The notes: generated by a model from the sequence alone, not told the origin. 64,000 bases of DNA from an uncultured Alphaproteobacteria bacterium (GCA_934271465.1 CAKQRQ010000010.1:951-64950), one strand, 5' to 3'; numbered from the stretch's first letter, positions 28,849 through 62,357 are shown. Program-made: numbers and translations.

Positions 28849-28857
28849 GGAGCCGCA

Positions 28858-29805
28858 ATGTTTAACCTGTTCAAAAACTTTGCTTCGCCGAAAAAATTAA
28901 GAGAAAAAGGCATTTTAGGAATGAATGCGCGCAATTACGATGTAATCTCGCATTACAATTCCCGCCGCCTTTACCCGTTGGTCGATGACAAAGTCCAGAC
29001 CAAAACGTTAGCCCTGAAAAACGGCGTTAAGACTCCTAACCTAATTGGTGTAATCGAACATCAATTTCAGGTCAAAAACATTTTGGAAATGGTCAAAGGC
29101 CGCACGGAATTTGTGGTTAAACCCTCGCACGGTTCGGGCGGAAAAGGCGTTCTGGTTATCAAAGGTTTTACCGAGGACAGCTTTACAATTCCCTCAGGCA
29201 GACAAATTTCTTATAATGACTTGTATCAACATATTTCAAATATCTTGAGCGGACTTTATTCTTTGGGCGGACAATATGACACGGCGCTTGTGGAAGAAGT
29301 CGTCCATTTTTCAGACATTTTCAAAGATTACAGCTATCAGGGCGTGCCTGATGTTCGTGTGATTGTCTACAAAGGTTTTCCGATTATGGCCATGACCCGC
29401 CTCTCCACGGCCGAATCCGGCGGACGAGCCAATCTACACCAAGGCGCGGTCGGCGTCGGGTTAGACATCAAAACAGGCAAAACAAAAAAAGCCGTTCAGC
29501 ACAACCGTCCGATTTTATATCACCCCGACACAAAAGCCGATTTGCGCAAAATTGAAGTTCCTTTGTGGAAAGAACACCTGTTGATTGCCGCCAAAGCCTA
29601 TGAAATGACCGGCTTGGGGTATTTTGGCGCGGATATCGTCCTTGATGCGCAAAAAGGCCCGATGATGCTTGAGCTCAACGCCCGCCCCGGTCTGGCCATT
29701 CAAATTGCCAATGGTCTCGGACTCAAAAAAGCTATCAAAAAAGTCGATAAATCTTTTCCTGAAGGTTTGTCGCCGGAAGAACGCGTTGAGTTTATTTTGG
29801 GCTGA
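28858..29805 (+). CDS. alpha-L-glutamate ligase-like ATP-grasp protein (RimK-related)
   Basis: ATP-grasp fold motifs (KPSHGSGGKGV, ...ELNARPGL). Confidence 0.7.
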   Translation: MFNLFKNFASPKKLREKGILGMNARNYDVISHYNSRRLYPLVDDKVQTKTLALKNGVKTPNLIGVIEHQFQVKNILEMVKGRTEFVVKPSHGSGGKGVLVIKGFTEDSFTIPSGRQISYNDLYQHISNILSGLYSLGGQYDTALVEEVVHFSDIFKDYSYQGVPDVRVIVYKGFPIMAMTRLSTAESGGRANLHQGAVGVGLDIKTGKTKKAVQHNRPILYHPDTKADLRKIEVPLWKEHLLIAAKAYEMTGLGYFGADIVLDAQKGPMMLELNARPGLAIQIANGLGLKKAIKKVDKSFPEGLSPEERVEFILG

Positions 29806-40072: not shown

Positions 40073-42037
40073 TTATTGCGCAATACAGCTCAGCCCATCA
40101 TCCGAAAGCTCATATTCAACACCATAGGTGGAACTGCTACACCACCTACAAGAGCAATCATCTTGATAAGATCCGCAATGTTCTATTATGGGGCAATCCG
40201 AACTATTTGAATAGTCAATAACACAACGAATATGTTTTTGTGCACTCTTCTTATTTAATTGAAAGCTTGCCGTCCCTCTCTGAATAGCGACAAAGTAGGT
40301 AGATGAGTTTTCTGTTGAAGTTGCAAGATCTCCTATATGAAAATCATTACCACCCAAAACAGTTTTTGATCCAAACTTTAATGCCGAAGCATCAAAAAGA
40401 CAGACCATGGGATGTCCTTGTCCAATCATCGATAGAACTTCTGCGGCCGCTGGCAAATACCACTTACCTTTATCGGAATCTGTGACGCCATATTTGCTGC
40501 AATATACGGCTGCCGAATTTTCTTCAGCTCCGGCTGCAATGATACAATCTGTATTGGCCTGACCGTCTGTTCTGCTGTTACATCCGGTCTCCGTATTCGC
40601 CAAATTTTCACTCCAAGGAAGAGTAACCTCATCTAAAGATAGAGCTAACAGACGACCTGTATTGACATTGCTAGCCCTAAAAATTATACCTATCGGCGTT
40701 CTGTCTGACGGGAAATTGTCAGGATCATAACAGTTGAAATCATCATAAAGCACCATTCCAGGAACACATTCATCAGCAGAATAAACACATTTATTATCCT
40801 TCAACGTAAATCCTCTGGCGCAAACAGCGCATTCTGTTTCAGAAGCACATTGTTTACAATAATCTACGTCGCACATATCAGCATAGGTATGGCAATAGTT
40901 TTCCCTACAGCTTCCTTCAAATAAATATCCATCAAAAGACCTATCGCAAGCTGTACATTTACAACCAACCCATTCACTATCGTATTCAGAACAATTAGAA
41001 TCCGCTTTATAACATATCTCTCGACACTCATTAGTTTCACTATCAAACAGATATTTTCTAAACCCATTCTTACTGGAACAATCCTCACAAGCACAGGTAT
41101 CTGCATTAAAGGCCTTACCCTCAGCCGCACAAGTCGCCGCAGTCAAAGAACACGAGCAATCATAATAACATTGTGTGACGCTCGCCTCTCCGGCATAACC
41201 CGATCCGATATAAAAGTCGTTGCTACTGCAAGAATAATTTTCCGGTTCCGCATCAAGATAATCAGAATTAACTTCCTGACAATTTCTATAGCACGTGACA
41301 CACTGGCCATTATACAAGCATTTATCCGCACCTTCACAACAATCCGCATCATAACAAGTTGTCTTCTCGGCATTACTTGGAGCTACTCCAATCCAATATT
41401 GTGGATCAACCGGACAATCGTTTGCGGTAGATTGAAGATTTTTTGCCGGACTTTGCGCTGCTCCGGCCGCGGCACAGCTTGGATAATAAGGCGTGCAAAC
41501 ACCATTATCATCAACTTCCGTCGCTTTGCAGCATTTTGAATTATAACAAATTTTCTTTTGGAGAGAAGCATTTCCGTCAATATAAATGACAACTGTTTCG
41601 CAACCCGTATCTTCATCTGAATATCCCGCACTATGGCAATCTTTATAAGGCTTCCGGCAATTCCCGTCAATCTTATAATACCCATCCGGACAGCAATGAA
41701 TATAACAAGTTGTTTCTTCCCCTTTGACATAGATTTTAACCGTGCCGCAGCCTTGAGAAGTCGTATAATAACCGGCATCTTCACAGCTGTCATAATTTGG
41801 ATAACACAACTCGTTGACTTCTATCTTTCCATCAGGGCAGCTGCCGCTTGCCCCGCCGCAAAAAAGCTTGGTTGTATCAAACGGGCATCTGACGATTTGT
41901 TTGCCGTCACATTCCTCAAGGGTATTGACATACCCCATCTCATCACAGGTGGGCTCCACCGACGGACAGTCTTGTGAAGAGGCCGGATTGGCAAGCAATA
42001 TAGCCATAAGTCCGAGAAGAAGATATTTCTTTTCCAT
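40073..42037 (-). CDS. secreted, extremely Cys-rich modular protein with DUF1566-like (GKWYLP) domain
   Basis: Signal peptide MEKKYLLLGLMAILLANPASS; dozens of Cys in repeated CxxxGY...GC modules; DUF1566-like core CSKYGVTDSDKGKWYLPAAAEV; C-terminal DCPIIEHCGSYQDDCSCRWC module homologous to the 8811-10181 C-terminus. Confidence 0.7.
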   Translation of the reverse strand: MEKKYLLLGLMAILLANPASSQDCPSVEPTCDEMGYVNTLEECDGKQIVRCPFDTTKLFCGGASGSCPDGKIEVNELCYPNYDSCEDAGYYTTSQGCGTVKIYVKGEETTCYIHCCPDGYYKIDGNCRKPYKDCHSAGYSDEDTGCETVVIYIDGNASLQKKICYNSKCCKATEVDDNGVCTPYYPSCAAAGAAQSPAKNLQSTANDCPVDPQYWIGVAPSNAEKTTCYDADCCEGADKCLYNGQCVTCYRNCQEVNSDYLDAEPENYSCSSNDFYIGSGYAGEASVTQCYYDCSCSLTAATCAAEGKAFNADTCACEDCSSKNGFRKYLFDSETNECREICYKADSNCSEYDSEWVGCKCTACDRSFDGYLFEGSCRENYCHTYADMCDVDYCKQCASETECAVCARGFTLKDNKCVYSADECVPGMVLYDDFNCYDPDNFPSDRTPIGIIFRASNVNTGRLLALSLDEVTLPWSENLANTETGCNSRTDGQANTDCIIAAGAEENSAAVYCSKYGVTDSDKGKWYLPAAAEVLSMIGQGHPMVCLFDASALKFGSKTVLGGNDFHIGDLATSTENSSTYFVAIQRGTASFQLNKKSAQKHIRCVIDYSNSSDCPIIEHCGSYQDDCSCRWCSSSTYGVEYELSDDGLSCIAQ

Positions 42038-45117: not shown

Positions 45118-46131
45118 CTAAACCGCTTTTTTTGTATCTTGATTGGCAATTTCCTGCATTCTGAAAAGCTTAAGCCGCTCAATCTGCTGTTTCTTAACAT
45201 ATTTGAGATATCCCTCATAGCCGAACAGCACAAAGGCCGACAAAATCAACGGCAGTAGGTAATAGATAATGCGGTAAGCCAACAGCGCGCCAAACAGCAT
45301 CGCCCGATTATGGTCGCCGGGGATAATATACATAAACAGCCCCTCAAACACGCCCAATCCGCCGGGAACCTGACTGAACACGCCCAAAACCTGCGCAATG
45401 ATAAACACGCCCATAAAGGTCGAAAACGGAATATCGACAAAGGCAATCAGCGAGAAATAGAGCACCAGCGAGGCCATCAAAATATCCGCACCCCCGATAA
45501 TGACCTGAGCCAAAGCCATGGGCGGCCGCGGCATATCAAGCTCAACGCCTTTGATAATCAAAGGTTTGCGATACCAGATGCTCAAAGCAAAATACCCCAA
45601 AAGGCCGACTGCCGAAATCAGCGTGACTACCTCGGTTGTCAGTTTTGACACGGAACCGTCGCCAAAAGCGTGATTCGGCGTGATAAAATAGCCGATGATA
45701 ATCAGCAAAAAGCACGCGACCAAATAAGTAAAGCCCGAAAACGTAACCATGCGGACAATCTCGGTGCCTCTGAAACGCCATCTGGTATAGAGGCGATAGC
45801 GGATTGTGCCGCCGGAAACAATGGCATGACCGGCGTTGTTGCTGACCGAAAAGCCGATAAATCCGGCAAAAATCCATTTCCACGGCGCAAGCTTCCGCCC
45901 GATGTAGCGCAAGGCCAAATAATCATACGAGGACAACGCGACATAGCCCAAAAACGACGCCGCGCACGCCATCAACAGATTGTGCGGCGGGATAGACATC
46001 AAAGCATTTTTGATGTCCTCAAGGCTGTATTTTGAAAGCTGGCGATAGAGCATATACGCCGCCACGCCAAAGAAAAACAGCCCCGCCCAAGAGAGAGCCT
46101 TTTTGAGAATCTTTTTTGTCTGAACCGCCAT
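45118..46131 (-). CDS. UPF0104 / lysylphosphatidylglycerol-synthase-TM-like (flippase-like) membrane protein
   Basis: About 8 TM helices, start at MAVQTKKILKK; last gene of the minus-strand glycan operon. Confidence 0.55.
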   Translation of the reverse strand: MAVQTKKILKKALSWAGLFFFGVAAYMLYRQLSKYSLEDIKNALMSIPPHNLLMACAASFLGYVALSSYDYLALRYIGRKLAPWKWIFAGFIGFSVSNNAGHAIVSGGTIRYRLYTRWRFRGTEIVRMVTFSGFTYLVACFLLIIIGYFITPNHAFGDGSVSKLTTEVVTLISAVGLLGYFALSIWYRKPLIIKGVELDMPRPPMALAQVIIGGADILMASLVLYFSLIAFVDIPFSTFMGVFIIAQVLGVFSQVPGGLGVFEGLFMYIIPGDHNRAMLFGALLAYRIIYYLLPLILSAFVLFGYEGYLKYVKKQQIERLKLFRMQEIANQDTKKAV

Positions 46132-46256
46132 TTGATGCCTCTGTAAAAATAAATAAACCCAACTGTGACAAGTTATAATTTGAATATACATAACCGTCAA
46201 TATTTAAAATATAATTACCTTGGCAAAAATTTTTGGAAAGAAAAGAGTGTGGTAAA

Positions 46257-47204
46257 CTAAATTTTCTGCAAAAGTAATTTCTTATAATATTTAGGCAAAA
46301 AAACAAAACCATAACTTTTTGCCAAAAATTTACGCACCTTATAAAAAGGAATAGTTTTCAGAAGTTTTGCAATTTTTTCTATCCGACTTACAAGTTCTGG
46401 ATGACGATAAATACTCCCAGAATAAGTCATCGTGCAAATACCGTTATAGCGTTTTTTGTATTCATAATCACCGCCCAATAAATAAGCTTTTTTCTTATGA
46501 TTATTAATCCAGCTCTCAATAATATTATGATAAAGAACCATTCCGATAGAGTATTTAGAATACTCAAGGTCATAGGCAAAATTTTCAAAATAGACATTTT
46601 CTTTATTTGTCTCTGAATCAAAACCGATAGCTATAATTTTACTGCCAGTTTTCAATAAATATGCATTAGAAACGCCAAAATCTTTTAAATACAAATTAGG
46701 ATCATATGAAAAATCGTGAGATATTTTTTTCCAAGATAAATACAAATCAACAATATCTTGAGAAATCATTTCTTTCTCTATTTTTTCAAAACAAATATTT
46801 CCAACCTCTGTCAACAACTTTTTGGCATAATATCTGGCATGTTGTCTTTCTTTTCCCGAAAGTTGAGCATCAAATTCCTCAATAGTTTGAGGCAAATCAA
46901 TATGCCAATGCGGCGCCGCTTTAATAGTTGAAAAAGGAGTATAAGTATGCAAAATAGAAATTTCTAAAATATTAGAATTCGAAGAAAACACATAATTCGC
47001 AAACTCTAGCAAATTTTCTTTTCCTATATTTCTCAAATACAATCCAGCCAGACAAACATTGCCCTGCAAATGAATCGGAATCAATATTCCACTATCTAAC
47101 TCAACTAAATTATAATCTGTTCCAAATAGTAAATCAAATCTGTTATGTATAACATCAGGATCTATATTAAACAGCTTTGCTTTTAACAATTTCGCCATCA
47201 TCAA
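46257..47204 (-). CDS. putative FemAB/CelD-like (GNAT-fold) acyltransferase
   Basis: 315-aa AT-rich ORF; weak resemblance to Acetyltransf_6/FemAB family; C-terminal IPFYKVRKFLAK motif. Confidence 0.35.
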   Translation of the reverse strand: MMMAKLLKAKLFNIDPDVIHNRFDLLFGTDYNLVELDSGILIPIHLQGNVCLAGLYLRNIGKENLLEFANYVFSSNSNILEISILHTYTPFSTIKAAPHWHIDLPQTIEEFDAQLSGKERQHARYYAKKLLTEVGNICFEKIEKEMISQDIVDLYLSWKKISHDFSYDPNLYLKDFGVSNAYLLKTGSKIIAIGFDSETNKENVYFENFAYDLEYSKYSIGMVLYHNIIESWINNHKKKAYLLGGDYEYKKRYNGICTMTYSGSIYRHPELVSRIEKIAKLLKTIPFYKVRKFLAKSYGFVFLPKYYKKLLLQKI

Positions 47205-47229
47205 TCTCTAAATAATTAAATTTACAGTT

Positions 47230-48186
47230 CTAATATTTTAAAAATAGCTTAAATTTTTTTCTGATTTTCTTTATCGGAAAAAGACAAACAACAGGCCTTA
47301 AAATCAACTTAATAAACGACATAAATAGCAATTTATATTTAATCTTGTTCAAATCAATACATAAACTCTGCAATGCGCACAATAACTCTCTTTGCACTTT
47401 AAATACTTCCTCATCACTAATATCATAATTTTTAACAAGATTATTCAAATCCGCTTCACAAAATTCATAATTCGATAAATCTAAAGGTTCCTTTTGTTTA
47501 TTAAATACAGAATAGTAATCATAAAATTTATAGCGGCTAGTTGTTTCTTCTGAAATCCTAACCCACTGATTGGGAATACGTAAAGCATCACACGCTATTA
47601 GCGGATGCATCGCCGTAGAAATAACGGCTTTACACTCACACATATCATGCAAAAATTTGTCAACAGAAAGCGTAGCATCTAAAATTTTGGAATTTGGTAT
47701 ACGCCCCGTAATTTTGGAAAAAACTTTGCTATCTCTATCTGCATAATGAGGCACTATTCCTAATTCATATTTCTTTTCAATCTTATCAGAATCAATAAGG
47801 TAACTAACTAACAAACCACCATCACCTAAAACAGCTCCAGTCGAATGGCCTAACATTTTAGATATACGAGCCTCCGTTAATTTACCACGAAGAGCATAAC
47901 ACTTTACATTACGCCTTAATTTTTCTGGTAAAATAATATTAGGATTATGAAAAAATTTTCCCTCCTCAAAGCCTATACCCGTAGAAAATAACCAAATAGG
48001 GTTTTCTTTAAATATATGGTCTTTAGTATCCATTAAGAGCATATCGCCTAAAGAACCTATTCCCATAATCATCGCAAAATCCACAGGAGCAAATCTAATT
48101 TTAATTTTTGCTAATTTAGAAAAAATAATAGGATTCAAAGCATCTCCAAAATTAGGTATATCACAGTAAAAAAAAGGAATTTTCAT
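47230..48186 (-). CDS. polysaccharide pyruvyl transferase family protein
   Basis: N-terminal FFYCDIPNFGDALNPIIF is typical of PS_pyruv_trans (CsaB/WcaK-like); C-terminal FPIKKIRKKFK motif. Confidence 0.6.
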   Translation of the reverse strand: MKIPFFYCDIPNFGDALNPIIFSKLAKIKIRFAPVDFAMIMGIGSLGDMLLMDTKDHIFKENPIWLFSTGIGFEEGKFFHNPNIILPEKLRRNVKCYALRGKLTEARISKMLGHSTGAVLGDGGLLVSYLIDSDKIEKKYELGIVPHYADRDSKVFSKITGRIPNSKILDATLSVDKFLHDMCECKAVISTAMHPLIACDALRIPNQWVRISEETTSRYKFYDYYSVFNKQKEPLDLSNYEFCEADLNNLVKNYDISDEEVFKVQRELLCALQSLCIDLNKIKYKLLFMSFIKLILRPVVCLFPIKKIRKKFKLFLKY

Positions 48187-48224
48187 TATATTTTCTCCAA
48201 ATTTTATAAAAAAATAATTTGCTG

Positions 48225-48812
48225 TTATTTCAAATAATTTTTAAAAATATCCTCTCTAACCCACTCTCTTGGCAATTCATTCACTTGAGGATAACTCATA
48301 CAAGCCTCATCCAAATTGTCATAATTTAACTTATCTCTCCACCCAACTATTTTAGCAGGATTGCCTGCTACTATAGCATACTTGGGAATACTTTTAGTTA
48401 CAACACTACCTGCACCAACAATTACACCATCATCTATTTTTACTCCACCTAATATGATACATCTAACACCTATCCATACGTTTCGGCCAATTTCGACATG
48501 TCTCAATAAACCTATATGATCATAGGGAATGCGCGTAGAACTCTTATAATTATGACAGGTAGTGAGAATTAAAGAATCTTCTCCTAACTTCGAATATTCA
48601 CCTATTGAAATCCCCCCCTCAGCATACAATTTACATCCCCTTCCTATATACACATTACCACCAAGTTCAATGTTTTCAATAAACCGACATTCTGCTGTTG
48701 GTTCAATAACATTTTCCTTGTAAATTTTTGGCAAATGTTCTTTTTTGTATTCAATTTGTAGTTTTTTACGAATTTTCTTTAATGGTATTAAATTTATCAT
48801 CCATTTTTTCAT
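48225..48812 (-). CDS. hexapeptide-repeat (LbH) O-acetyltransferase
   Basis: Left-handed beta-helix repeats (NVYIGRGCKL, IGRNVWIGVRCIILGGVKIDDGVIVGAGSVV); N-terminal LIPLKKIRKKL motif. Confidence 0.75.
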   Translation of the reverse strand: MKKWMINLIPLKKIRKKLQIEYKKEHLPKIYKENVIEPTAECRFIENIELGGNVYIGRGCKLYAEGGISIGEYSKLGEDSLILTTCHNYKSSTRIPYDHIGLLRHVEIGRNVWIGVRCIILGGVKIDDGVIVGAGSVVTKSIPKYAIVAGNPAKIVGWRDKLNYDNLDEACMSYPQVNELPREWVREDIFKNYLK

Positions 48813-49555
48813 AATTTGCCTTTCAAATACCTTGTGATAGGAATGAGTCTAAATGCCTCAGCATAATTTACATTATTCGCCATACACCCCCTATAAATAT
48901 TCAATCCCAATATGCGTGGAATTAAATTATATTTTACCCATTGCGATTTATACAACTTTAGAGCTTGTTTTTTTACAGAGACAACCTGTGAGATATCTTC
49001 ATAATAATTTGGAGATTTAAGAGGAGACCAAACTTCATAAAAGCCTATAATTGTATCTTTATTATAGCCTTTTCTACGTATAATTTCTTTAGCAAGAACA
49101 TTTGTTATGTATTTATGTTCTATATGTTCATCATAAGGATTAGGCAAAAAAATATAATCATACCTTAATATATCTAACACAGCACAATAATCTTGAAACA
49201 TTTCGTTAATTTGATCAATAAAGGGAGGCTTTCCAAAAGTTTTAAATATCCACCTATTTTGAACCCCCAACATATCCATAACTTTGTTAAATTCCACAAT
49301 CCTAATATCAGCCCGTTCTTCAGCTTGAATATCTCCATAAGCAACCCCTGAGCTTGAAACACAACAAACATCAAAATTTTTAGTATATTTAATAAGCATT
49401 CCTCCCATCCCTAGCATTTCATCATCTGGATGAGGAGCAATCAAAAGACATCGTGTATCACTTTCTATGCTTAAATCAATGTGACGAAAATAATATTTTC
49501 GTAGTTTATGCCTTAATTTCTTATTAGGAATAAAATTTATTAACCACTTCCACAC
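48809..49555 (-). CDS. PIG-L/LmbE family N-acetylglucosaminyl deacetylase
   Basis: LLIAPHPDDEMLGMGG motif; N-terminal FIPNKKLRHKL motif. Confidence 0.75.
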   Translation of the reverse strand: MWKWLINFIPNKKLRHKLRKYYFRHIDLSIESDTRCLLIAPHPDDEMLGMGGMLIKYTKNFDVCCVSSSGVAYGDIQAEERADIRIVEFNKVMDMLGVQNRWIFKTFGKPPFIDQINEMFQDYCAVLDILRYDYIFLPNPYDEHIEHKYITNVLAKEIIRRKGYNKDTIIGFYEVWSPLKSPNYYEDISQVVSVKKQALKLYKSQWVKYNLIPRILGLNIYRGCMANNVNYAEAFRLIPITRYLKGKL

Positions 49556-49567
49556 AATACAAACCCC

Positions 49568-50527
49568 TCATCTTTTCACATTATATAAAGACTTGCGCAT
49601 TCTTTTTAATTTTTTGCGAAAAGTTTTTATCGGCATTAATTTTAAACAGAGCCACAAAAAAAACGACTTAAGATAAACAATGTTTGTCGGAAAAAAATAA
49701 TCTTTGTTATAAAAAGGTGAAGTTTCAATATATGAAAAATATTCTTTTGATATTTCAGTATATGCTCTATTCCATATTTTAGGATTCCTTCCAGCATAGT
49801 GAATAATTTTAGGATTAGCCTTTGCTTCCTGAAGCTCTGCATCAGAATACACATGTGAAAGCCAAGGATACTCAGGAGCTAAATTTATAGGGTAATCAAA
49901 TATATTCTCCAAAACACAATAATTAAAAGGTATTTCCAAAATCTTATCAACAGACAAATTCAAAACATCTAAGTCAAACATTTTTAATTCTGAGTTAAAA
50001 TCCTTTATAGTCTGAAAAAAACGCGAAAGCATATTTTTATTTCGCCATTGTTTAGCATTTATAAGCATAAAACCAGACATATAAATATACGGTTTGGAAT
50101 TTGACTTGAAATGCGTATGAACACCATTCTTTTCATCCTGCCGTTCAGCTACAACCCCTGCCCAATCATAATCAGATAAATCCATATTATATATCTCTGT
50201 CAAATCTCCACGAAATAAAACATCAACATCTGACCAAATTATTTTATCATATTCTTTAACAACATCCGCAATAAGCAATCTATAATAAACAGATATTGGC
50301 CAATTCTCTGAGATTGGTGCATTAGAAAAAAAATCACATACTTTAATCCATCTAATATATGGACATACGCACCCCATTTTGGAAATTGTCTTTTCACTCA
50401 AATTTCCATATAATACAATTATGTCATATTCTGTATCAAAGTTCCTATGTTTTAATAAAGATGAAATAGCAATACTTGCGGGAAGAGCATACCTATCATC
50501 AAAAGCAAAAACTATGGGTATTTTCAT
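49568..50527 (-). CDS. glycosyltransferase family 8
   Basis: IVFAFDDRYALPASIAISSLL, YYRLLIADV..., DVDVL (DxD); C-terminal MPIKTFRKKLK motif. Confidence 0.75.
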   Translation of the reverse strand: MKIPIVFAFDDRYALPASIAISSLLKHRNFDTEYDIIVLYGNLSEKTISKMGCVCPYIRWIKVCDFFSNAPISENWPISVYYRLLIADVVKEYDKIIWSDVDVLFRGDLTEIYNMDLSDYDWAGVVAERQDEKNGVHTHFKSNSKPYIYMSGFMLINAKQWRNKNMLSRFFQTIKDFNSELKMFDLDVLNLSVDKILEIPFNYCVLENIFDYPINLAPEYPWLSHVYSDAELQEAKANPKIIHYAGRNPKIWNRAYTEISKEYFSYIETSPFYNKDYFFPTNIVYLKSFFLWLCLKLMPIKTFRKKLKRMRKSLYNVKR

Positions 50528-51672
50528 TGTGAAAGAATCTCCTTAAAATTATTTAAACTTTCCATTTTCAACCGTTCAAACAATTGCATAAGAAATATTT
50601 GTTTTTTCTTATATCCTTGCTGATCAATTGTGATAGCTTCTTGCATACCTTTAGTTAAATCTTTTGAAATTATTGCATTTTCATTATCAAAACCATAAAA
50701 TGGTGCAAAATGTGGATGTATGACAGGAATCTTTCCAAATGCATATATAAGTTGAGCCGAACCAGTAACTCCGGTAGTAATGTAACGATTATGTTCAAAA
50801 TTTTCAGGATTTAACAACGGCAAATAAAAATCAGCTTCTTCCATATATCTAAACATCTCTGAAAAATTCAAACGTCCCGTTATTTCAATATATGAACGAA
50901 TTTCTTCTGGTAAATTTTCCAATTTACCTTTGCCAACGACAACAACCTTAAAATTTTGCTTTAACGCAACTAATTCTTTAATCGCCGAAATCAATTTCTG
51001 ATGATCTTTACGTTCTTGTTGTATTCCTCCAACACATATAAATACGGTCTTTTTTCCTTTTTGTGTTATATTAATACTTCCAAACAAAAGCGGAGAAGCA
51101 AACACTGTTTGAGGGAAATGTCCCAAAGTTATGAGATGTTTTTGTTTGCAGAAAGAACGTTCATTAAAACGGTTTATATCATTTAAATCATGTTCTACAA
51201 TAAACAATGAATGGTGCTTTCTCAACTGTGGATAATAATTTAATACGGACATATACATACCATTAACGCAATAAAAATAAGCAGCTGAGCTCATTAGAAT
51301 AATATGTTTATATTCATAAAATTTTCTAGATGCCAAAAAAAACTTCATCAATGAAAAATCGGACATAAAAACAAAAACATTTGAAATATCTAAACGACAA
51401 AATGGATTTTCTTTTACTATTATCGGATTTACAAGTATATCAACATTATATCCAATATCTTGAAAATATTTCAAATAACCGCCTATAACCTCCCCATGAG
51501 TATTATTTACTTCAACAAGTAATACACTATTTTTCCTCGTTTTCATCTTTAAAAATTTATACAAATTGCAAAAATCCTGTATATTTAAATGCATTAAATA
51601 ATTACGAAAATAGCGACGTTTATTTCTATTAAAAATAAGGAACGTTAACAACCTCGCAATAAACTTTTTCAT
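50524..51672 (-). CDS. glycosyltransferase family 1 (GT4-like)
   Basis: C-terminal GT-B nucleotide-binding motif (ICVGGIQQERK...EADFYLPL...TGVTGSAQLI). Confidence 0.65.
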   Translation of the reverse strand: MKKFIARLLTFLIFNRNKRRYFRNYLMHLNIQDFCNLYKFLKMKTRKNSVLLVEVNNTHGEVIGGYLKYFQDIGYNVDILVNPIIVKENPFCRLDISNVFVFMSDFSLMKFFLASRKFYEYKHIILMSSAAYFYCVNGMYMSVLNYYPQLRKHHSLFIVEHDLNDINRFNERSFCKQKHLITLGHFPQTVFASPLLFGSINITQKGKKTVFICVGGIQQERKDHQKLISAIKELVALKQNFKVVVVGKGKLENLPEEIRSYIEITGRLNFSEMFRYMEEADFYLPLLNPENFEHNRYITTGVTGSAQLIYAFGKIPVIHPHFAPFYGFDNENAIISKDLTKGMQEAITIDQQGYKKKQIFLMQLFERLKMESLNNFKEILSQ

Positions 51673-53024
51673 GCCTTCCCCCACTGTTCTAATATCCAAG
51701 AAGATGAATTCATTTTACTGCTTCCGCCAACTCCAAAAGCTAAATCCACATGGCATTCCTCACATACCGGATGTTCCGGTATATTATCTTTTCCCCTATC
51801 TCCACCATTTGCAAAGACCAAATGTATATTAGGATATTTAACTTTAGCTTTTCTTATTCCGTCACTTGCTGAGCCATCAGAATCATCAAATTCAATAACA
51901 TCCACAACGCCTTTAAGGTTTTCTAAAATCGATTTCCGTGTCTGTATTGAATAAAAATTTTTTCCTTTTTTTCGTTTTAACCATTCATCAGAATTAACTA
52001 AAACTATCACCCCATCTGAAGCGGACGAAGCGGCCTTTATCATTTCTATATGTCCCTCGTGAATAGGATCGAAGCCACCTGACACAATGTAATAAGTTAA
52101 CTTTGAATTGTTTTTTAATAAAAACAACTTTTTCAAAAAGTTAAGAATCGTTTGTTTAAAAATTCTTCTAGAACGTTTTCTAATTAGTCTGTCTGACAAT
52201 GATGTCTGTTGCAAAAGCCCCTTAACCTTCAAAAAATCTTTTGGATCCATTTTTTTGATATTCAAAAAATTTATTATACAAAAATCACTTAAAGCTCTTT
52301 TATCTTCCTCTAAACAAGCTTTTTTTCTCGCAAAATCCATAATCATTCTGAAAATAGAAATACTGTCCTGTATACGCTTAATTTCTTTTGCGGGATCTCG
52401 TGTTGTGCTATTCGGATTACAAACATAATTATATCCAGAACCATCTATAACTGAAAACTTATCAGAATAAAACAAAGCATTAATAACAAATAAATTATCT
52501 TCCCAATAAAGCCCTTCAGGAAAAATAATTTGATTATTTTTAATAAGGTCAATTTTATATATTTTATCCCAAACACCACCATGAGGCAAAACTTTAACTT
52601 TATCTGAAAATTTTGTTAAAATTTTATGCCCAAAGTGAGTCTGTTTAACACTCTTTCTCTCAACATATTTTGTATTTGTCATAACAATATCGGCATTTAC
52701 ATATTGAGCTTCAGTAAACAAATCCATCAAAAATTCAGCATCATAAAAGTCATCAGAATCTAAAAAACAAACATATTGACCAGAAACTAGCTTAAGTGCT
52801 CTATTACGAGCAGCAGCCTGACCTTGATTCTCCTGTGTCACAACCTTTATTCGAGAATCTTTTGCAGCATATCGATTCAAAATTTCAACACTGCCATCTG
52901 TCGACCCGTCATTAACAACAATCGCTTCCCAGTCTTGAAATGTCTGAGCCAAAACAGAATCCAGACATTTTGCAACATACTTTTCGCAATTATAACAAGG
53001 GATAATTACCGAAATCTTAGGCAT
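51669..53024 (-). CDS. family-2 glycosyltransferase fused to C-terminal cytidylyltransferase-like (HIGH-motif nucleotidyltransferase) domain
   Basis: N-terminal ISVIIPCYNCEKYVAKCLDSVLAQTF...FLDSDD GT2 motifs; C-terminal YYIVSGGFDPIHEGHIEMI nucleotidyltransferase motif. Confidence 0.75.
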   Translation of the reverse strand: MPKISVIIPCYNCEKYVAKCLDSVLAQTFQDWEAIVVNDGSTDGSVEILNRYAAKDSRIKVVTQENQGQAAARNRALKLVSGQYVCFLDSDDFYDAEFLMDLFTEAQYVNADIVMTNTKYVERKSVKQTHFGHKILTKFSDKVKVLPHGGVWDKIYKIDLIKNNQIIFPEGLYWEDNLFVINALFYSDKFSVIDGSGYNYVCNPNSTTRDPAKEIKRIQDSISIFRMIMDFARKKACLEEDKRALSDFCIINFLNIKKMDPKDFLKVKGLLQQTSLSDRLIRKRSRRIFKQTILNFLKKLFLLKNNSKLTYYIVSGGFDPIHEGHIEMIKAASSASDGVIVLVNSDEWLKRKKGKNFYSIQTRKSILENLKGVVDVIEFDDSDGSASDGIRKAKVKYPNIHLVFANGGDRGKDNIPEHPVCEECHVDLAFGVGGSSKMNSSSWILEQWGKA

Positions 53025-53889
53025 GATTCTGTCCCCCGTTCTTCAACTTAATTGTCATTTTGCTTGTCAACAGCGGGATTTTTTCAAACAAATAGACCTT
53101 TGTTCGGTTGCCCTGACGAGTAATCGTCAAAAACGGAATTATCCCAAACAGGTTTATCCTCGTTGTCCGCTTGGCTTTCAGCAAAAATTCTTCATACAGC
53201 GCCGGATTAGCCGCTCTCACAAATGCCCAAACCGCAAAGCCTGCATTCTTCATCTTTTCCGCCTGATGATGCGTCGTGTTGTTCTCATGATCCCGATAAT
53301 GAAACAACACTTCCGGCAAATTATGAAACTTCGTTACGCCTATCAGCCTGCTCCACAACGCATAATCTTCCGCCGGACTATACTCTTCCTCATACCTGAC
53401 ATTGTTCTTTGTTAGAACAGATTTCCGTATCATCGCCGCCGAATGTGATATTGCGCACACGCTCATCAGCGCCAGTTTAATCTCATGGTCATTTTCCAAA
53501 CATTCAGAATATGTTCCTCGTATCATATTCTTGATTTTGCAACTAACCACGCCGACTTCCGGATGTGCGTCCAGATACGCAACTTCTTTTTCCAAACGCT
53601 CCGGCAATGAGATATCGTCATGATCAAACACAGCCAAATACTCGCCCTTGGCCATATCTATCAATTTGTTTCGGCTCGGCGTTATTCCGAGATTATGCTC
53701 ATTTTTACTATATTTGATACGCGCATCATGATAAGACTTAACTATCTCCTCCCGATTATCTTCAGGACAATCGTCTAATATCAAAAACTCAAAGTCGCTA
53801 AAAGTCTGCGCCAAGATACTTTCTATCGCCTCGCGCAGATATGATTCCTTGGTTCTATACACCGGCATTAATACGGATACTTTAGGCAC
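53017..53889 (-). CDS. family-2 glycosyltransferase
   Basis: VSVLMPVYRTKESYLREAIESILAQTF...VFDHDD motifs. Likely GTG start at 53887-53889 with ggaggg RBS (the ORF-track ATG at 53958 overlaps the upstream gene). Confidence 0.75.
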   Translation of the reverse strand: MPKVSVLMPVYRTKESYLREAIESILAQTFSDFEFLILDDCPEDNREEIVKSYHDARIKYSKNEHNLGITPSRNKLIDMAKGEYLAVFDHDDISLPERLEKEVAYLDAHPEVGVVSCKIKNMIRGTYSECLENDHEIKLALMSVCAISHSAAMIRKSVLTKNNVRYEEEYSPAEDYALWSRLIGVTKFHNLPEVLFHYRDHENNTTHHQAEKMKNAGFAVWAFVRAANPALYEEFLLKAKRTTRINLFGIIPFLTITRQGNRTKVYLFEKIPLLTSKMTIKLKNGGQNHA

Positions 53890-54466
53890 GGACGCCCTCC
53901 TGAGTAATACTCTGATTTTTCTTGATATAGGCAAGGAGCGAGGTGTAGCCGCAGCCAAGTTCGGCCGCCAGCTGGCGTTTGCTCATGCCGGTTGACAGAC
54001 GCTGCTTAATCAGCTTGTCCTTATCCGCCAAAGATGCCATTTGATTATCGCCCTTAAACGGTCGACCGCGCTTTTTGCCTGATTTCAGCAAATTTTCTTG
54101 AATATTCTTGTTTTTGACTGACAAAACGGACTTATAAAGTTGCAAACAAATTTGAGCTGTCGTGTCAAAAGCCTGCGGCATCATGGTGTCAATTTGTAGA
54201 TTATTGCCGACGATATAAATTCGCACACCGCGCTGCGCCAACCGGCTGACCGACTGAATAACTTCTTCAAAACCGTTACCCAAAGCCCTCACATCTTCAA
54301 TCATAAAGACATCACCGGAATGCAGGCGCGATAAATTGGCCTCACTTAAAGCTTGAGCTTTGATAAACCGCTGAATGGTAAAATTGCAGGTGTGAGCATA
54401 CTCAAACAACAAACACTCTTGCTGCTTGCCCGATAGTCCCGTTTTATTTATAAATGCCGCTATCAT
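53882..54466 (-). CDS. small serine-recombinase (resolvase/invertase)-like protein, non-canonical active site
   Basis: 194 aa. Resolvase-like N-terminal domain (..GLSGKQQ.. aligned to RVSTxxQ; RLHSGDVFMIEDVRALGNG aligned to GDTLVVWKLDRLGRS; RLAQRGVRIYIV) and C-terminal HTH (MSKRQLAAELGCGYTSLLAYIKK). Two conserved catalytic Arg appear substituted. Confidence 0.55.
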   Translation of the reverse strand: MIAAFINKTGLSGKQQECLLFEYAHTCNFTIQRFIKAQALSEANLSRLHSGDVFMIEDVRALGNGFEEVIQSVSRLAQRGVRIYIVGNNLQIDTMMPQAFDTTAQICLQLYKSVLSVKNKNIQENLLKSGKKRGRPFKGDNQMASLADKDKLIKQRLSTGMSKRQLAAELGCGYTSLLAYIKKNQSITQEGVRA

Positions 54467-54513: not shown

Positions 54514-54658
54514 TCTTCATAAACCACCGTCTAGAATATATATCAGACCTTTTACACTATTAAAAAGAACAATGCAACCCAAAAGTTGGGTTTTCCTGTA
54601 TTTTTGCCATTTTACAAATTGTTGATTTTGTTTGTTCGCAAACGGTGGTTTATGAAGA
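54514..54658. promoter_or_regulatory. candidate invertible DNA segment flanked by 17-bp perfect inverted repeats
   Basis: tcttcataaaccaccgt (54514-54530) and its exact reverse complement acggtggtttatgaaga (54642-54658) flank 111 bp carrying TTGCAT-N17-TAAAAG-like promoter elements; it lies immediately upstream of the recombinase-like gene heading the glycan operon. Confidence 0.45.
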
Positions 54659-54733
54659 TTTGATGCAAACACGGCTGCTCGGCCGTTTTTTTGTAAAAAA
54701 AATCCGCCAAAGAAACACTCTTCCGGCGGAAAA

Positions 54734-54807
54734 TGGAGCAGGTAACGGGAATCGAACCCGCATATTAAGCTTGGGAAGCTCACATTCTACCATTGAATTA
54801 TACCTGC
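54734..54807 (-). tRNA. tRNA-Gly (anticodon CCC)
   Basis: Reverse complement GCAGGTATAATTCAATGGTAGAATGTGAGCTTCCCAAGCTTAATATGCGGGTTCGATTCCCGTTACCTGCTCCA; cloverleaf with anticodon loop TTCCCAA and terminal CCA. Confidence 0.85.
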
Positions 54808-54864
54808 AAGCTGTTGCCGAATTATTTACTCCAAATAAATTCACTTGGCAACAAAATATTTAAG

Positions 54865-56439
54865 TTATTCCTTCACTTTGGCAAATTTGACCTTAGGAAA
54901 GTCCTCCTGCGCCTTGTTCAAATGCCAAGCATTGCGCGCCAAAAAGACCAAAGCTCCGTCATTATCTTCGGCCAAATTCAAACGGTTGGCATCTGTAAAT
55001 TTCTTCATCTCCAGTTTATCTTCCGAGGACACCCACCGCGCGGTAAAATACTGAGTCGGTTCAAACATGACCGGCAGATTAAACTCATTTTTAATCCTGT
55101 CCGCCATAACCTCAAACTGCAAAACGCCTACAACGCCCACAATCCATTCCGCGCCGACCACCGGCTTAAACACGCTCGCGCCGCCCTCTTCGGCAATCTG
55201 TTTCAGCGCGTCGCCCAAATGCTTGGATTTCAAAGGATCCAGCGCCCGTGCCGATTTCAAAAGTTCCGGCGCAAAAGCCGGTATCCCTGTAAAGTTAATC
55301 TTTTCGCCCTCGGTCAAACTATCTCCGATTCTAAGTTGCCCGTGGTTGGGGATTCCGATAATATCCCCTGCAAACGCATCTTCCGCAAGCTCCCGCTCTT
55401 GAGCCAAAAACATAACCGGCGTCGGCACCTTAAGTCCCTTGCCCGTGCGCACCTGCGTCAAAGTCATTCCCCGTTTAAAATGCCCCGAACAAATCCGCAT
55501 AAAGGCAATCCTGTCACGATGTTTCGGATCCATATTTGCCTGAATCTTAAACACAAACCCCGTCACCTTGCCCTCATCGGGATTAACCATTCGTTCCACC
55601 GCCGGATGAGGTCTCGGAGTCGGCGCAAATCGGTGTAATCCTTCCAAAACCTCCCTCACGCCAAAATTATTGATGGCGCTTCCAAAAAAGACAGGAGTCA
55701 CAGTTCCGGCCAAATAGGCCTCCAAGTCAAACTTAGGGCACAATTCCTCAATCATCATCACATCTTCACGCAGTTTGGCCACCTGATGCGCCGGCAACAA
55801 CTCGTCCAACTTTGGATCATCCAACCCTGAACATGTCTCAATCACGCTGTTAACGGTTGACTTATCGCCGGTTTTGCTCATCAAAATCATGCGGTTGTTC
55901 AAAATATCATAACACCCTTTAAAGTCTTTACCTGATCCAACCGGCCAACTTGCCGGTGTCACATCCAAAGCCAACGTGCGTTCAATCTCGTCCAACAACG
56001 CAAACGGATCCTGCCCCTCTCGGTCAAGTTTGTTGATAAAGGTAATAATCGGCACATCTCTCAGCCGGCAAACCTCAAACAGTTTCTTGGTCTGAGCCTC
56101 AATACCTTTGGCCGAGTCCAAGACCATCACGGCCGAATCAACCGCCGTCAGCACACGATACGTATCTTCCGAAAAGTCCTCATGCCCCGGTGTATCCAAC
56201 AGGTTAAAAGTAATTCCGTCATAGTCAAAAGTCATCACGGACGAAGCCACCGAAATTCCGCGCTCCTGCTCCACTTTCATCCAGTCCGACCGCGCACGGC
56301 GGTTTTCGCCGCGGGCTTTAACGGCGCCAGCCTGCTGAATAGCCCCCCCGAACAACAGCAATTTTTCGGTCAAAGTTGTCTTACCGGCGTCAGGGTGGGA
56401 AATAATCGCAAAAGTTTTGCGCGGATTAACTTGTGTCAT
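54865..56439 (-). CDS. prfC: peptide chain release factor 3
   Basis: AIISHPDAGKTTLTEKLL GTPase G1, DTPGHEDF, NKLD; 524 aa. Confidence 0.9.
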   Translation of the reverse strand: MTQVNPRKTFAIISHPDAGKTTLTEKLLLFGGAIQQAGAVKARGENRRARSDWMKVEQERGISVASSVMTFDYDGITFNLLDTPGHEDFSEDTYRVLTAVDSAVMVLDSAKGIEAQTKKLFEVCRLRDVPIITFINKLDREGQDPFALLDEIERTLALDVTPASWPVGSGKDFKGCYDILNNRMILMSKTGDKSTVNSVIETCSGLDDPKLDELLPAHQVAKLREDVMMIEELCPKFDLEAYLAGTVTPVFFGSAINNFGVREVLEGLHRFAPTPRPHPAVERMVNPDEGKVTGFVFKIQANMDPKHRDRIAFMRICSGHFKRGMTLTQVRTGKGLKVPTPVMFLAQERELAEDAFAGDIIGIPNHGQLRIGDSLTEGEKINFTGIPAFAPELLKSARALDPLKSKHLGDALKQIAEEGGASVFKPVVGAEWIVGVVGVLQFEVMADRIKNEFNLPVMFEPTQYFTARWVSSEDKLEMKKFTDANRLNLAEDNDGALVFLARNAWHLNKAQEDFPKVKFAKVKE

Positions 56440-60335: not shown

Positions 60336-62357
60336 TCATCCAAACAAGGCAAGCACGCTCTGGGCGGAATTTGCAGCAAGGGAAAGAGCGTTGGTGGCGA
60401 GTTGCTGGCGGGTTTGGAGCGCCAAATAATTCGCAGATTCCTCGTTCATATCAGCCAAAACGAGATTATCAGCCCCTGTTTCCAAAACATCTGTCAAAGC
60501 CTCGGTAAAATTTTGACGTGTCTGAATAATACTGTAATTGTTGCCTAATTCTGATTGAAATGTGCGAATTTTGTTAACCGCCGCCAAGAGCTCTTGAATT
60601 GAGTTTGCGATATCTCCCTGCGTTGTCCATTCAGCTTTGGTCAGTCCTAACGCGGCGGAACTCATATCCTTTCCTTGGACTGTTAGTTTGTTGTTTCGGG
60701 TTTCGTTGAACACAACGTCCAATTTTTCATTTTTGAGTAAATTAACGCCTTGATATGATGAGTCATTAATTAATTTATCATACTGCTCAAAAGCTTTGTT
60801 ATATTGATCGATGAGCGAGTCAGCAATTTGTCTGGTCGACGTATCTGAAGAAAATGTATTTGTAACTTCAATCTCACCGCGGGTTTGAAGCAGTGAAGAG
60901 AATATATCGTTTTCAAGGTTTTGAATCCCCGTAATGTCTATATTTCTATTGCCCCAATATGTCACTTTAAACCTCCCGCCATACGGATTATCCGGATTAA
61001 AATTCCCCGTGCCGAAAAATGAGCTAAACGTCAAGTCCCTCAGGTTGATAATTGTCGCATCGCATCCGTCTCCCGAGACGGCCGCAATCACGCCGACGAC
61101 CTTTTTGCTGCCGTTGTAATCCGCCGCCAAACCCCACGTTTTATCTTCATACATGACGTCGCCCACTTTGGGCGCCGTTCCATCCGCGGACGGATTAAAA
61201 ATATTTTTTAAAAGCTGAGAACAACGCATGGCGCCCGTGAAATCCTTATAATAGCTTTCCAAGTCGCCATCACTTCCGTCGATCCTCCATGAAGTGCCTG
61301 AAGTCTCCTCAGACGAGGACCAATAAGGAAAGGAGCGGAGAGCTGCCGCATCAACACCTTTGGTAGCAAGCGCATTCAAGGCGTTATTGATAAGGAGCAT
61401 CTTATCGCCTATAGCACCGGTTAAGCTGCCTCTGCCCGTTATTTTGCTAGTGTCTGTGCCGTAAAATTCCATCCACTCGCCTATTGAAGGCAAATACCAT
61501 TTACCTTGGCCGAAGTCGCCGTTTTTGTCACCGACATAAAATTGGCTTGCTGCACTGGCTGCCAGTCCGGCTTCTCCGATTTGGTCGAGAATGGCTTTTG
61601 TATTTGCTTGTCCGTCGTAAATCTCCATTGCTGCAACATTGCCATTGGCAAGTCTTTGCGCCCCTGTGCCGCTAACCGTAATTCCAAAGGTATTATCTAA
61701 CGTCAATTTACCGCCGTTCAACACCCTGATACCGGCAACTTTTTCTCCTGAGGCGAAAATTTTCAAATTGCTAATGCTTGCACTGTTTCCGGTTCCATCT
61801 ATCTCTATGGCTGATTTACCGGATTCTGTAGCAGTGTAAGAGATTTTGTGCCCGTTGCCGTCTAAAGTCACATTCGCCGCTGTGATACGGAGCTCAGTTG
61901 TTAAGGTAATGTCGCCTGAAAGGACAACTTTTGCGCCTGCGGCAATAGCGGCTTGAAGCTCTGCCTCTGTGCCAACGGCCGTATAGCCCTCGGCGATATA
62001 ATCTTCTATCGATTTGCCCGCTGTCGTCCCTGAACCTGAGGCACTGCCGATTTGGCTCAAGGCCTCGTTTGCAACGGCCGAGGCTTGTTCGAGGAATGAG
62101 GCACCGCTTGTCAGGCCTTGCGTCGCCGCTTGGATTGTTTGTATCCCCTGTCCCATCGCGTCTAATAAGGCGTCTAAATCCGAGGCTCTGTTTGTGAGAG
62201 CTCTTGCTTGATAATAGCTTGAGGCATTATCAATTGCGGAATTGACTTTCTTTCCTGTCGAAAGCCTTTCCTGTGTCGTGTTCATTTGTTTGGAGATGTT
62301 TTTCAGGCTGTTTAAGTTGCTCCGCATTGACGCCGTCAGCGTGATACTCTTTACCAT
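60336..62357 (-). CDS. flagellin-family protein with large inserted central domain (beta-helix-like plus DUF1566-like module)
   Basis: N-terminus SITLTASMRSNLNSLKNISKQMNTTQERLSTGKKVNSAIDNASSYYQARALT... and C-terminus ...ANYLALQTRQQLATNALSLAANSAQSVLALFG match flagellin D0/D1 helices. The central about 400 aa includes repetitive beta-helix-like strands and FYVGDKNGDFGQGKWYLPSIGEWMEFYGTD, nearly identical to the 8811-10181 protein. Confidence 0.7.
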   Translation of the reverse strand: MVKSITLTASMRSNLNSLKNISKQMNTTQERLSTGKKVNSAIDNASSYYQARALTNRASDLDALLDAMGQGIQTIQAATQGLTSGASFLEQASAVANEALSQIGSASGSGTTAGKSIEDYIAEGYTAVGTEAELQAAIAAGAKVVLSGDITLTTELRITAANVTLDGNGHKISYTATESGKSAIEIDGTGNSASISNLKIFASGEKVAGIRVLNGGKLTLDNTFGITVSGTGAQRLANGNVAAMEIYDGQANTKAILDQIGEAGLAASAASQFYVGDKNGDFGQGKWYLPSIGEWMEFYGTDTSKITGRGSLTGAIGDKMLLINNALNALATKGVDAAALRSFPYWSSSEETSGTSWRIDGSDGDLESYYKDFTGAMRCSQLLKNIFNPSADGTAPKVGDVMYEDKTWGLAADYNGSKKVVGVIAAVSGDGCDATIINLRDLTFSSFFGTGNFNPDNPYGGRFKVTYWGNRNIDITGIQNLENDIFSSLLQTRGEIEVTNTFSSDTSTRQIADSLIDQYNKAFEQYDKLINDSSYQGVNLLKNEKLDVVFNETRNNKLTVQGKDMSSAALGLTKAEWTTQGDIANSIQELLAAVNKIRTFQSELGNNYSIIQTRQNFTEALTDVLETGADNLVLADMNEESANYLALQTRQQLATNALSLAANSAQSVLALFG

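Follow-up and report, generated by a model that had tools for sequence, protein, structure and literature searches.

The switch, the operon and their variation

The 64-kb stretch of DNA considered here (the window, along the whole of which all positions are counted) derives from an uncultured Alphaproteobacteria bacterium. Between a tRNA-Gly gene and a gene for a protein resembling a serine recombinase it holds an invertible element, and this recombinase-like gene is the first of ten on the minus strand, the other nine being glycan-related (Table 1). Gene identities come from an open reading frame (ORF) listing together with Pfam and NCBIfam, and that of the tRNA from ARAGORN. The ten genes overlap or lie at most 40 nucleotides (nt) from each other, the exception being a 125-nt gap before the MprF-like gene, and the recombinase-like gene shares 8 nt with the start of the adjoining glycosyltransferase family 2 (GT2) gene. 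The initial annotation, drawn from the sequence alone, had already recognized both a glycan-modification gene set behind a recombinase-like gene and an AT-rich block from about 46250 to 53000; the same genes were recovered by our listing and domain matches, and the G+C content (GC) is 29–33% over ~46.2–53.0 kb, with values per kb of 0.29–0.32 from 46 to 53 kb, against about 44% elsewhere in the window, with an edge that is sharp at ~46.15 kb and graded at 52.7–53.0 kb, within the GT2 domain (the 5′ part) of a fusion gene. We read the region as a surface-glycan cassette, phase-variable and exchangeable, in an uncultured alphaproteobacterium of the animal and human gut, and would set the probability of this reading at about 0.7.

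The element measures 145 bp, with two perfect 17-bp inverted repeats around a 111-bp core, and ends 47 nt upstream of the first ATG; no further copy of the repeat is present in the window. When metagenome copies were aligned to the window, one (L002) held positions 54514–54658 reversed, and among seven independent assemblies of the locus three have the orientation seen in the window (A: ERZ28614635, ERR7745759 and Joint Genome Institute (JGI) SAMEA104315432) and four the opposite one (B: ERZ28613844, ERZ4567913 from Hadza, ERZ28614456 and SRR25571928). In three of the four B copies the core is, once flipped, 100% identical to that of the window, with the flanks unchanged. We take the natural occurrence of both orientations as site-specific inversion in natural populations, because, at 15–17 bp, the repeats have neither the length that would confuse an assembler nor that of a good RecA substrate. 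Might the two orientations nevertheless reflect rare events of homologous recombination at the short repeats, or else assembly error, with no regulated switch at all? What this has in its favor is that the orientation recorded is the majority (consensus) state of each assembly. However, such repeats are below assembler k-mers and far under efficient RecA substrates, the seven assemblies come from different projects and are cleanly A or B with identical flanks, and the repeat consensus T(T/A)CA(T/A)AAAYC(A/T)CCGT is found again at further loci, next to an Mpi-type invertase, all of which makes that explanation highly improbable.

An identical locus is present in many gut metagenome assemblies. 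In a scan based on prfC, the organism groups with metagenome-assembled genomes (MAGs) of uncultured animal- and human-gut Alphaproteobacteria; members of the group have turned up in human samples, Hadza among them, and the nearest relatives are MAGs from ruminants and from other human guts. The closest species (L013, whose prfC is 92% identical) has the order secA, ppiC, prfC, tRNA-Gly, a 169-amino-acid (aa) ORF, the MprF-like gene, a tetratricopeptide repeat (TPR) gene, tRNA-Leu, tig and clpP, without the recombinase-like gene, the GT2 gene and all seven low-GC genes. Its presence in this cassette-free relative marks the MprF-like gene as native, and the whole stretch of ~46.2–54.7 kb is, to judge by these gene orders, variable. 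What had first been described as a horizontally acquired block dropped into a native operon keeps its low-GC block as foreign or exchangeable material and loses its native operon, the MprF-like gene being the sole native member.

Three smaller features of these flanks deserve record. Relative to prfC, tRNA-Gly(ccc) and ~60 nt upstream of it are inverted with respect to L013 (window 54731–54865, L013:11575–11780), and the L013 gap before the MprF-like gene is filled by the different, 169-aa ORF. Upstream of the MprF-like gene both species have TTGACG-N17-TATA(A/T)C (window 46169–46197, L013:12456–12486), which hints at a promoter of its own for that gene, although it is separated from the cassette by no terminator.

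A metagenome scan with the conserved 28-nt leader that follows the switch matched one JGI contig (L107), on which secA-ppiC-prfC-tRNA-Gly, the switch and the recombinase-like gene heading the operon are as in the window and a GT61-type gene then takes the place of GT2; since the site can thus accommodate a GT61 cassette as well, what follows the head is exchangeable. Individual strains also carry lesions within the block. The FemAB-like gene is frameshifted at 46730, where an A7 tract has become A6 in SRR25571928, and the pyruvyl transferase gene is disrupted at 47766 by a 7-bp duplication, GAATTAG, in SRR34880748 (window positions, from comparison with L002 and L006). That these frameshifts constitute a designed switch was considered and rejected, since both changes look like ordinary inactivation.

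The block adjoins a tRNA gene and is absent from a close relative, as an island would be, and its position next to tRNA-Gly had been remarked upon at the outset, with integrase-type insertion as the implication. On that account a native operon received a horizontally acquired island at tRNA-Gly, the recombinase-like gene is what remains of the integration machinery, and the terminal peptide shared by several of the enzymes (see below) results from recombination or is a common tag; the low GC and the nature of the first gene fit as well. No integrase was found among the window proteins or by tblastn, and no direct repeat derived from tRNA-Gly or its 3′ end, just chance 10–12-mers, which speaks against a tRNA-linked integrative island and leaves the implied link unsupported. 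The account is further opposed by a recombinase-like protein that is not decaying (the ratio of non-synonymous to synonymous substitution rates, dN/dS, being about 0.1) and that recurs at the head of glycan operons behind homologous switches, by tag-coding DNA that is not repeated, and by a switch that inverts; we give it little credence, and return to an exchangeable cassette behind a switch as the preferred reading.

Table 1. Positions of the switch, the operon genes and the adjoining tRNA gene in the window
Feature	Position	Strand	Basis and remarks
tRNA-Gly(ccc)	54734-54807	-	ARAGORN, blastn; neighbor upstream of the switch
Left inverted repeat TCTTCATAAACCACCGT (read towards the operon)	54642-54658		Direct reading of the sequence
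Invertible core, 111 bp, in orientation A here	54531-54641		Alignment of metagenome copies
Central palindrome AACCCAA-N3-TTGGGTT in the core, terminator-like both ways	54576-54592		Sequence scan
Promoter-like TTAATA-N17-TATATT in the core, towards the operon in orientation A	54535-54563	-	Weak; chance-level count
Right inverted repeat ACGGTGGTTTATGAAGA, then leader conserved in sibling loci	54514-54530		Direct reading of the sequence
Mpi-type serine-recombinase paralogue, predicted catalytically degenerate, 194 aa	53882-54466	-	Weak Pfam Resolvase, NCBIfam Mpi; first gene behind the switch
GT2 glycosyltransferase, 290 aa, 44% GC	53017-53889	-	Pfam, NCBIfam; C-terminal basic tail 'IP(F/L)L' doubled
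GT2 + CTP_transf_like (cytidylyl/adenylyl-transferase-like) fusion	51669-53024	-	Pfam, NCBIfam; basic amphipathic linker at ~aa 278-305
GT1/GT4-type glycosyltransferase, 382 aa	50524-51672	-	Pfam; N-terminal basic tag variant MKKFIARLLTFLIFNRNKRRYFRNYL
GT8 retaining glycosyltransferase, lipopolysaccharide alpha-galactosyltransferase-like (WaaI/WaaJ-like)	49568-50527	-	Pfam, NCBIfam; C-terminal tag at 49595-49651
PIG-L/LmbE-type de-N-acetylase	48809-49555	-	Pfam; N-terminal tag at 49490-49546
Hexapep, left-handed beta-helix (LbH) O-acetyltransferase	48225-48812	-	Pfam, NCBIfam; N-terminal tag at 48747-48803
PS_pyruv_trans, polysaccharide pyruvyl transferase-like	47230-48186	-	Pfam; C-terminal tag at 47239-47295
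Acetyltransf_6/FemAB-like acyl- or aminoacyl-transferase	46257-47198	-	Pfam; looser C-terminal tag at 46311-46367; inserted block ends here
MprF-like LPG_synthase_TM (flippase-like)	45118-46131	-	Pfam, NCBIfam; native neighbor, outside the inserted block

The degenerate recombinase paralogue and its sibling loci

The 194-aa product of the first gene scores 18.3 bits against the Pfam Resolvase family, below the threshold of 23.3, and its sole NCBIfam match is to the Mpi master-invertase family. Aligned with canonical invertases it has lost the nucleophile loop Y-x-R-V-S-T, which is shortened to MIAAFINKTG; its S-G...R loop is deleted, the catalytic S/D-R-L-G-R reads VRALGNG, and in place of the E-helix motif E-I-E-R-x-L-I-S-x-R-T there is LQLYKSVLSVKNK. 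The G-K-x-R-G-R-P arm and the helix-turn-helix (HTH) are retained, and these parts are 36–38% identical to a true invertase as against 17–24% for the catalytic part. An AlphaFold2 model (pLDDT 87.3) has resolvase topology, and the top 34 Foldseek matches in the PDB consist of Tn3/gamma-delta resolvase, Sin and Gin, every one of them a small serine recombinase. Among copies 88–96% identical to each other dN/dS is 0.07–0.25, with synonymous divergence (dS) up to 0.59, which points to purifying selection and not to a pseudogene. An exhaustive HMMER search of 1.84 billion representatives found only 154 relatives; among the ~35 clusters that rank highest, nearly every one shows this degeneration, the loss of the nucleophile loop included, with clearly canonical resolvases ranking lower. 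No prior description of dead invertase paralogues was found in the literature searched. On the strength of these motif losses, which its relatives share, we regard the protein as a conserved Mpi-type paralogue, predicted to be catalytically dead.

Relatives of this protein at the front of other operons, here called heads, tell much about its company. Heads 88–92% identical precede different low-GC cassettes on six contigs (L098–L103), that of L098 consisting of two GT61 genes, a hexapeptide transferase and DegT, and that of L101 of a TagD-like cytidylyltransferase, GT8 and an ATP-binding cassette (ABC) transporter. In these loci a canonical invertase of 195 aa is encoded divergently from the head, 273 bp away, and the intergenic space contains, besides the same leader of 28 nt, a homologous switch (TACATAAATCTCCGT / ACGGAGGTTTATGAA, core ~111 bp). 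With 272.5 bits the invertase of L098 reaches the Mpi equivalog cut-off of 272 (NF009949); that of L010, where an intact invertase lies between two divergent glycan operons, scores 255.9 bits. More distant heads, 35–39% identical (L104, L105), and a protein of L009 also come first in glycan operons; in L104 a single contig holds two heads, and in L009 a stretch of 123 bp is enclosed by an 18-bp inverted repeat. The Mpi repeat consensus is reportedly ARACGTWCGT, which the L009 and L104 sequences AAACGGTCGT and AACGTTCGT resemble and the window repeat less so, a remark to be taken as no more than that. Positions 11841–12296 of L010 and their flanks contain an Mtd_N ORF (N-terminal part of the tropism determinant of diversity-generating retroelements), a GT10 fucosyltransferase gene and a VirB4 gene beside a homologous glycan cassette.

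The enzyme is not confined to glycan loci. An invertase 95–96% identical is encoded beside Type III restriction-modification (R-M) genes, with a canonical invertase next to homologous switches in L108–L125, and related repeats occur at glycan and at R-M loci, on separate contigs. The R-M inverton itself (L108:7589–7852, L118:6744–7000) has the repeats ATTCAAAAAYCTCCGT / ACGGAGRTTTTTGAAT and a core with TTGCAA-N17-TATAAT, which is oriented towards Mod in L108 and towards the invertase in L118 (Mod 629 aa, Res 970 aa); this arrangement suggests a phase-variable Type III R-M system at these two loci.

Which enzyme, then, inverts the switch of the window? One candidate is the 194-aa protein itself, acting by non-canonical chemistry with no enzyme in trans. 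Inversion does take place at a locus with no other recombinase in its 64 kb (a tblastn search of the window found no true resolvase or large serine recombinase), the protein has kept its fold as well as its arm and HTH, and the shortened N-terminal loop contains a Thr and a Ser. Yet all four conserved catalytic motifs of serine recombinases have been lost across the whole family, and the canonical Mpi-type invertase encoded adjacently in sibling loci would be redundant were the paralogue active, so that self-inversion seems improbable. Since the window lacks a true invertase, we infer that an Mpi-type invertase from another part of the genome acts on the switch in trans, by analogy with Mpi at most Bacteroides polysaccharide promoters (PMC4747536).

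The basic terminal peptide

Among the low-GC enzymes the initial annotation had noticed a near-identical basic peptide on five or six consecutive products, and this has held up well. The strict pattern [ILFMV]P.[KR][KRT][ILFMV]R[KRH][KR] occurs four times, at the N-terminus of the PIG-L and LbH enzymes and at the C-terminus of GT8 and the pyruvyl transferase, and looser versions are found at the C-terminus of the FemAB-like protein, the N-terminus of GT1 and in the linker of the GT2-CTP fusion. The tag is thus terminal on six of the seven low-GC enzymes, every copy being either terminal or within the linker of the fusion protein. All share a layout in which a hydrophobic or aromatic stretch is followed by Pro and then by a basic segment, with a net charge of +8 to +12 in no more than 38 residues.

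Had the motif been ubiquitous in unrelated proteins, it would count as an artefact of AT-rich coding. Outside the block none of the six reading frames of the window has a match to the strict pattern; shuffles of the seven proteins that kept their composition gave a mean of 0.0001 strict matches, and in none of 20000 was the observed four reached. With a slightly broader pattern, 80 unrelated genome loci (1.44 million six-frame residues) gave just two matches, each in a GC-rich run of arginines, as against ten in four glycan cassettes, all terminal. The possibility of an artefact of AT-rich composition is ruled out by these shuffles, by the rarity across the window and in unrelated genomes, and by Arg-rich versions in orthologues. 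Nor is the tag a DNA repeat, as the earlier thought of repeated recombination at the DNA level would have it. Tag-coding stretches are 39–65% identical, with identity highest at codon position 2 and only 16–47% at position 3, and a repeat search of the window gave just short AT-rich chance families.

Conservation between genomes points the same way. The N-terminal tag of PIG-L is kept in ~35 clusters at 43–64% identity, Arg-rich versions such as LINLIPIKKLRRRFRDRYFP included, and more distant PIG-L proteins are without it. Orthologues of GT8, the pyruvyl transferase, the acetyltransferase and the FemAB-like protein in L009, L010 and L012 carry it at the same terminus, and among these cassettes a TagF-like glycerophosphotransferase is tagged too. 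Comparison at the protein level supports the tag as a real feature of the proteins, compatible with membrane association. No prior description of an IPxKKxRKK-type motif was found in the literature searched. A second family of terminal tags was also seen: the N-terminal form, '...G(K/R)xxIYLFGIK(I/V)LSYK', is found on a hexapeptide transferase, a 306-aa protein of unknown function and a GT10 fucosyltransferase, and another form, present on GT2 enzymes among which is the 44%-GC GT2 of the window, is C-terminal and doubled, 'LFGxIPL(I/F)KIK' (L098:13468–15032, L010:12410–13450, window 53017–53150).

What might such a tag do? C-terminal basic-aromatic regions serve as membrane anchors in WaaJ and LgtC, and the WaaI/WaaJ-like GT8 here is likewise tagged at its C-terminus. 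Amphipathic-helix interfacial anchors are described for LpxB, PglH and TarL/TagF (PMC5785501, PMC5792488, PMC10901376). Shared with such anchors of lipopolysaccharide (LPS) and teichoic-acid enzymes is a terminal, strongly basic, hydrophobic-flanked segment on enzymes of soluble fold that act on lipid-linked glycans; different here is that one motif, hydrophobic-I/L-P-x-K/R-x-W/I/L-R-K/R-K/R-hydrophobic, is common to six unrelated folds in one cassette, may stand at either end of the protein and is kept from genome to genome. Of the two roles first proposed for it, membrane association or complex assembly, what stands is a shared protein-level tag that fits the former, membrane binding itself being a prediction.

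The latter would make of it a docking tag by which proteins contact each other to build one enzyme complex or scaffold assembly, in place of a lipid-binding anchor. One short motif on unrelated folds encoded side by side would suit docking, as would an invariant Pro and a fixed spacing (IP-x-K/R-x-hydrophobic-R-K/R-K/R) more specific than a generic amphipathic helix needs, and an only moderate hydrophobic moment in some copies. We nevertheless consider docking unlikely: there is no candidate receptor protein conserved across the cassettes, the motif is tolerated at either terminus with aromatic or hydrophobic residues before it, and the net charge is like that of known interfacial anchors on LPS and teichoic-acid enzymes (PMC5785501, PMC10901376). 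Membrane association is the role carried forward below.

Proposed working, known systems and meaning

In the scheme we propose, a promoter in the core would, in one orientation, transcribe the dead paralogue and eight enzymes, with the paralogue translationally coupled to GT2 through the 8-nt overlap. Four glycosyltransferases, a nucleotidyltransferase domain, a deacetylase, an N-acyl/aminoacyl-transferase, an O-acetyltransferase and a pyruvyl transferase would together modify a glycan on a lipid carrier, working on the cytoplasmic side of the inner membrane, where the basic tags would keep them. The acceptor is most likely the outer core of lipooligosaccharide (LOS) or LPS, since there is no initiating transferase, flippase, polymerase or exporter and the GT8 is WaaI/WaaJ-like. 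A single 515-aa protein of L010 (L010:7–1554) is a PIG-L::Acetyltransf_6 (FemAB-like) fusion, by which we regard the separate PIG-L and FemAB-like genes of the window as probably coupled; deacetylase and acyltransferase would act consecutively on the same amino sugar. Flagellin had been offered as another destination for the glycan. The flagellin gene (60336–62357) is 6.4 kb from the operon, behind prfC, ppiC and secA, and neither flagellin-glycosylation genes nor, among the ten proteins by Pfam and NCBIfam, Pse, Leg or Maf domains accompany it, so that the intervening genes and missing domains speak against a flagellin glycosylation island and the proposed link is unsupported.

The paralogue, made in the ON state only, would bind the repeats through its invertase-like HTH and either modulate inversion or silence sister loci; by analogy with accessory-site recombinases, such binding, tuning or silencing is its most plausible role. 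A bolder extension, to which we would give rather less than an even chance, makes of it a new class of switch regulator (a 'pseudo-invertase') that is expressed only when ON, binds invertase sites, and locks its own locus or blocks or biases sister loci.

Several points weigh against the reading as a whole, besides the consensus nature of the orientation calls already mentioned. The promoter-like TTAATA-N17-TATATT was found once, with 0.9 expected by chance; all promoter scans gave chance frequencies and are weak hints, so that the outward-facing promoter in the core is a prediction, and orientation A as ON a guess. The six sibling-locus contigs are all in one orientation. Genome coverage for this locus amounts to the 64 kb, which hold no true invertase, and a search for an Mpi-type invertase and this locus in one sample gave no match, only related sample series. 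By Pfam and NCBIfam the ten proteins include no initiating transferase, flippase, polymerase or ABC transporter/exporter, and the set is without the hallmarks of a complete O-antigen or capsule locus, whether Wzx/Wzy- or ABC-dependent. The helical hydrophobic moment of the tag is high in some copies and ordinary in others, and that the tag may hold enzymes at the membrane is suggested by composition and analogy.

How does the locus compare with known switches? In Bacteroides fragilis one serine invertase, Mpi, flips promoters at seven loci for capsular polysaccharides as well as six further regions (PMC4747536). Common to both is a short segment flanked by inverted repeats that immediately precedes the surface-glycan operons of a gut bacterium, with several locus types that have related repeats and an invertase, in the sibling loci here, that reaches the Mpi equivalog cut-off; as at most Bacteroides polysaccharide loci, there is no invertase in cis. 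The host here, however, is an alphaproteobacterium, the cassettes look like LOS/LPS-type modification sets without export genes, and the first gene is the dead invertase paralogue and not UpxY/UpxZ (neither Pfam nor NCBIfam finds the NusG-like domain of UpxY in the ten proteins), and the evidence for multiple loci within one genome consists of the two heads on one L104 contig. The locus resembles Bacteroides-type invertible-promoter control; what is new is the lineage of the host, the swappable cassettes that lack export genes, and an inactive invertase paralogue in place of UpxY/UpxZ.

Salmonella FljA silences the alternative flagellin gene fliC. With the Hin/H-segment system (fljBA) the present locus shares its type, that of a small serine invertase system whose ON orientation yields a regulator together with a surface antigen; in Salmonella, though, hin is active and lies inside the segment and the regulator is unrelated to the recombinase, whereas the candidate regulator here is a dead recombinase paralogue outside the segment. 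The best structural matches of that paralogue are proteins of res sites II-III of Tn3/gamma-delta and of the Sin regulatory complex (PDB 5cy1, 2r0q), where accessory-site dimers control recombination architecturally without cleaving DNA. There one active protein does both jobs; here a separate paralogue, predicted to be permanently inactive, would be available for the second. As for the enzymes, variable low-GC loci with conserved flanks are familiar from Campylobacter LOS and enterobacterial rfb. Like them, the present locus has low-GC glycan genes swapped between strains at a fixed site and frameshift knock-outs in some strains, and it differs in a 5′ flank made up of a switch and a regulator head that recurs at several loci.

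Two other features of the window may be noted in passing. At 40073–42037 (minus strand) the window encodes a cysteine-rich protein of 654 aa with a signal-peptide-like start and no Pfam match, which the tig-clpP interval of L013 is without, and at 27328–29805 (plus strand) there is a gene pair, an inactive-transglutaminase/seven-transmembrane (7TM) protein and a 'sugar-transfer associated' ATP-grasp protein (ATPgrasp_ST), a conserved and poorly understood pairing.

The gut persistence of Bacteroides, and its evasion of phages and of immunity, rest in large part on invertible-promoter control of surface polysaccharides. The present locus suggests that little-studied uncultured Alphaproteobacteria of the gut use a homologous Mpi-type system, with two twists: low-GC glycan cassettes appear to be exchanged behind a conserved switch head, and the first gene of each operon is a conserved copy of the invertase, predicted to be inactive. 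The tag, for its part, is a compact, sequence-defined candidate signal for sending soluble enzymes to the membrane, which may aid the annotation of glycan pathways and perhaps their engineering. If the inactive copy does regulate switching, it would be a simple, testable case of an enzyme paralogue recruited to regulate its own family, and could serve as a part for synthetic recombinase circuits. Were the pseudo-invertase idea to prove true, these bacteria would possess a memory or mutual-exclusion circuit for swappable glycan cassettes, made wholly of recombinase parts.

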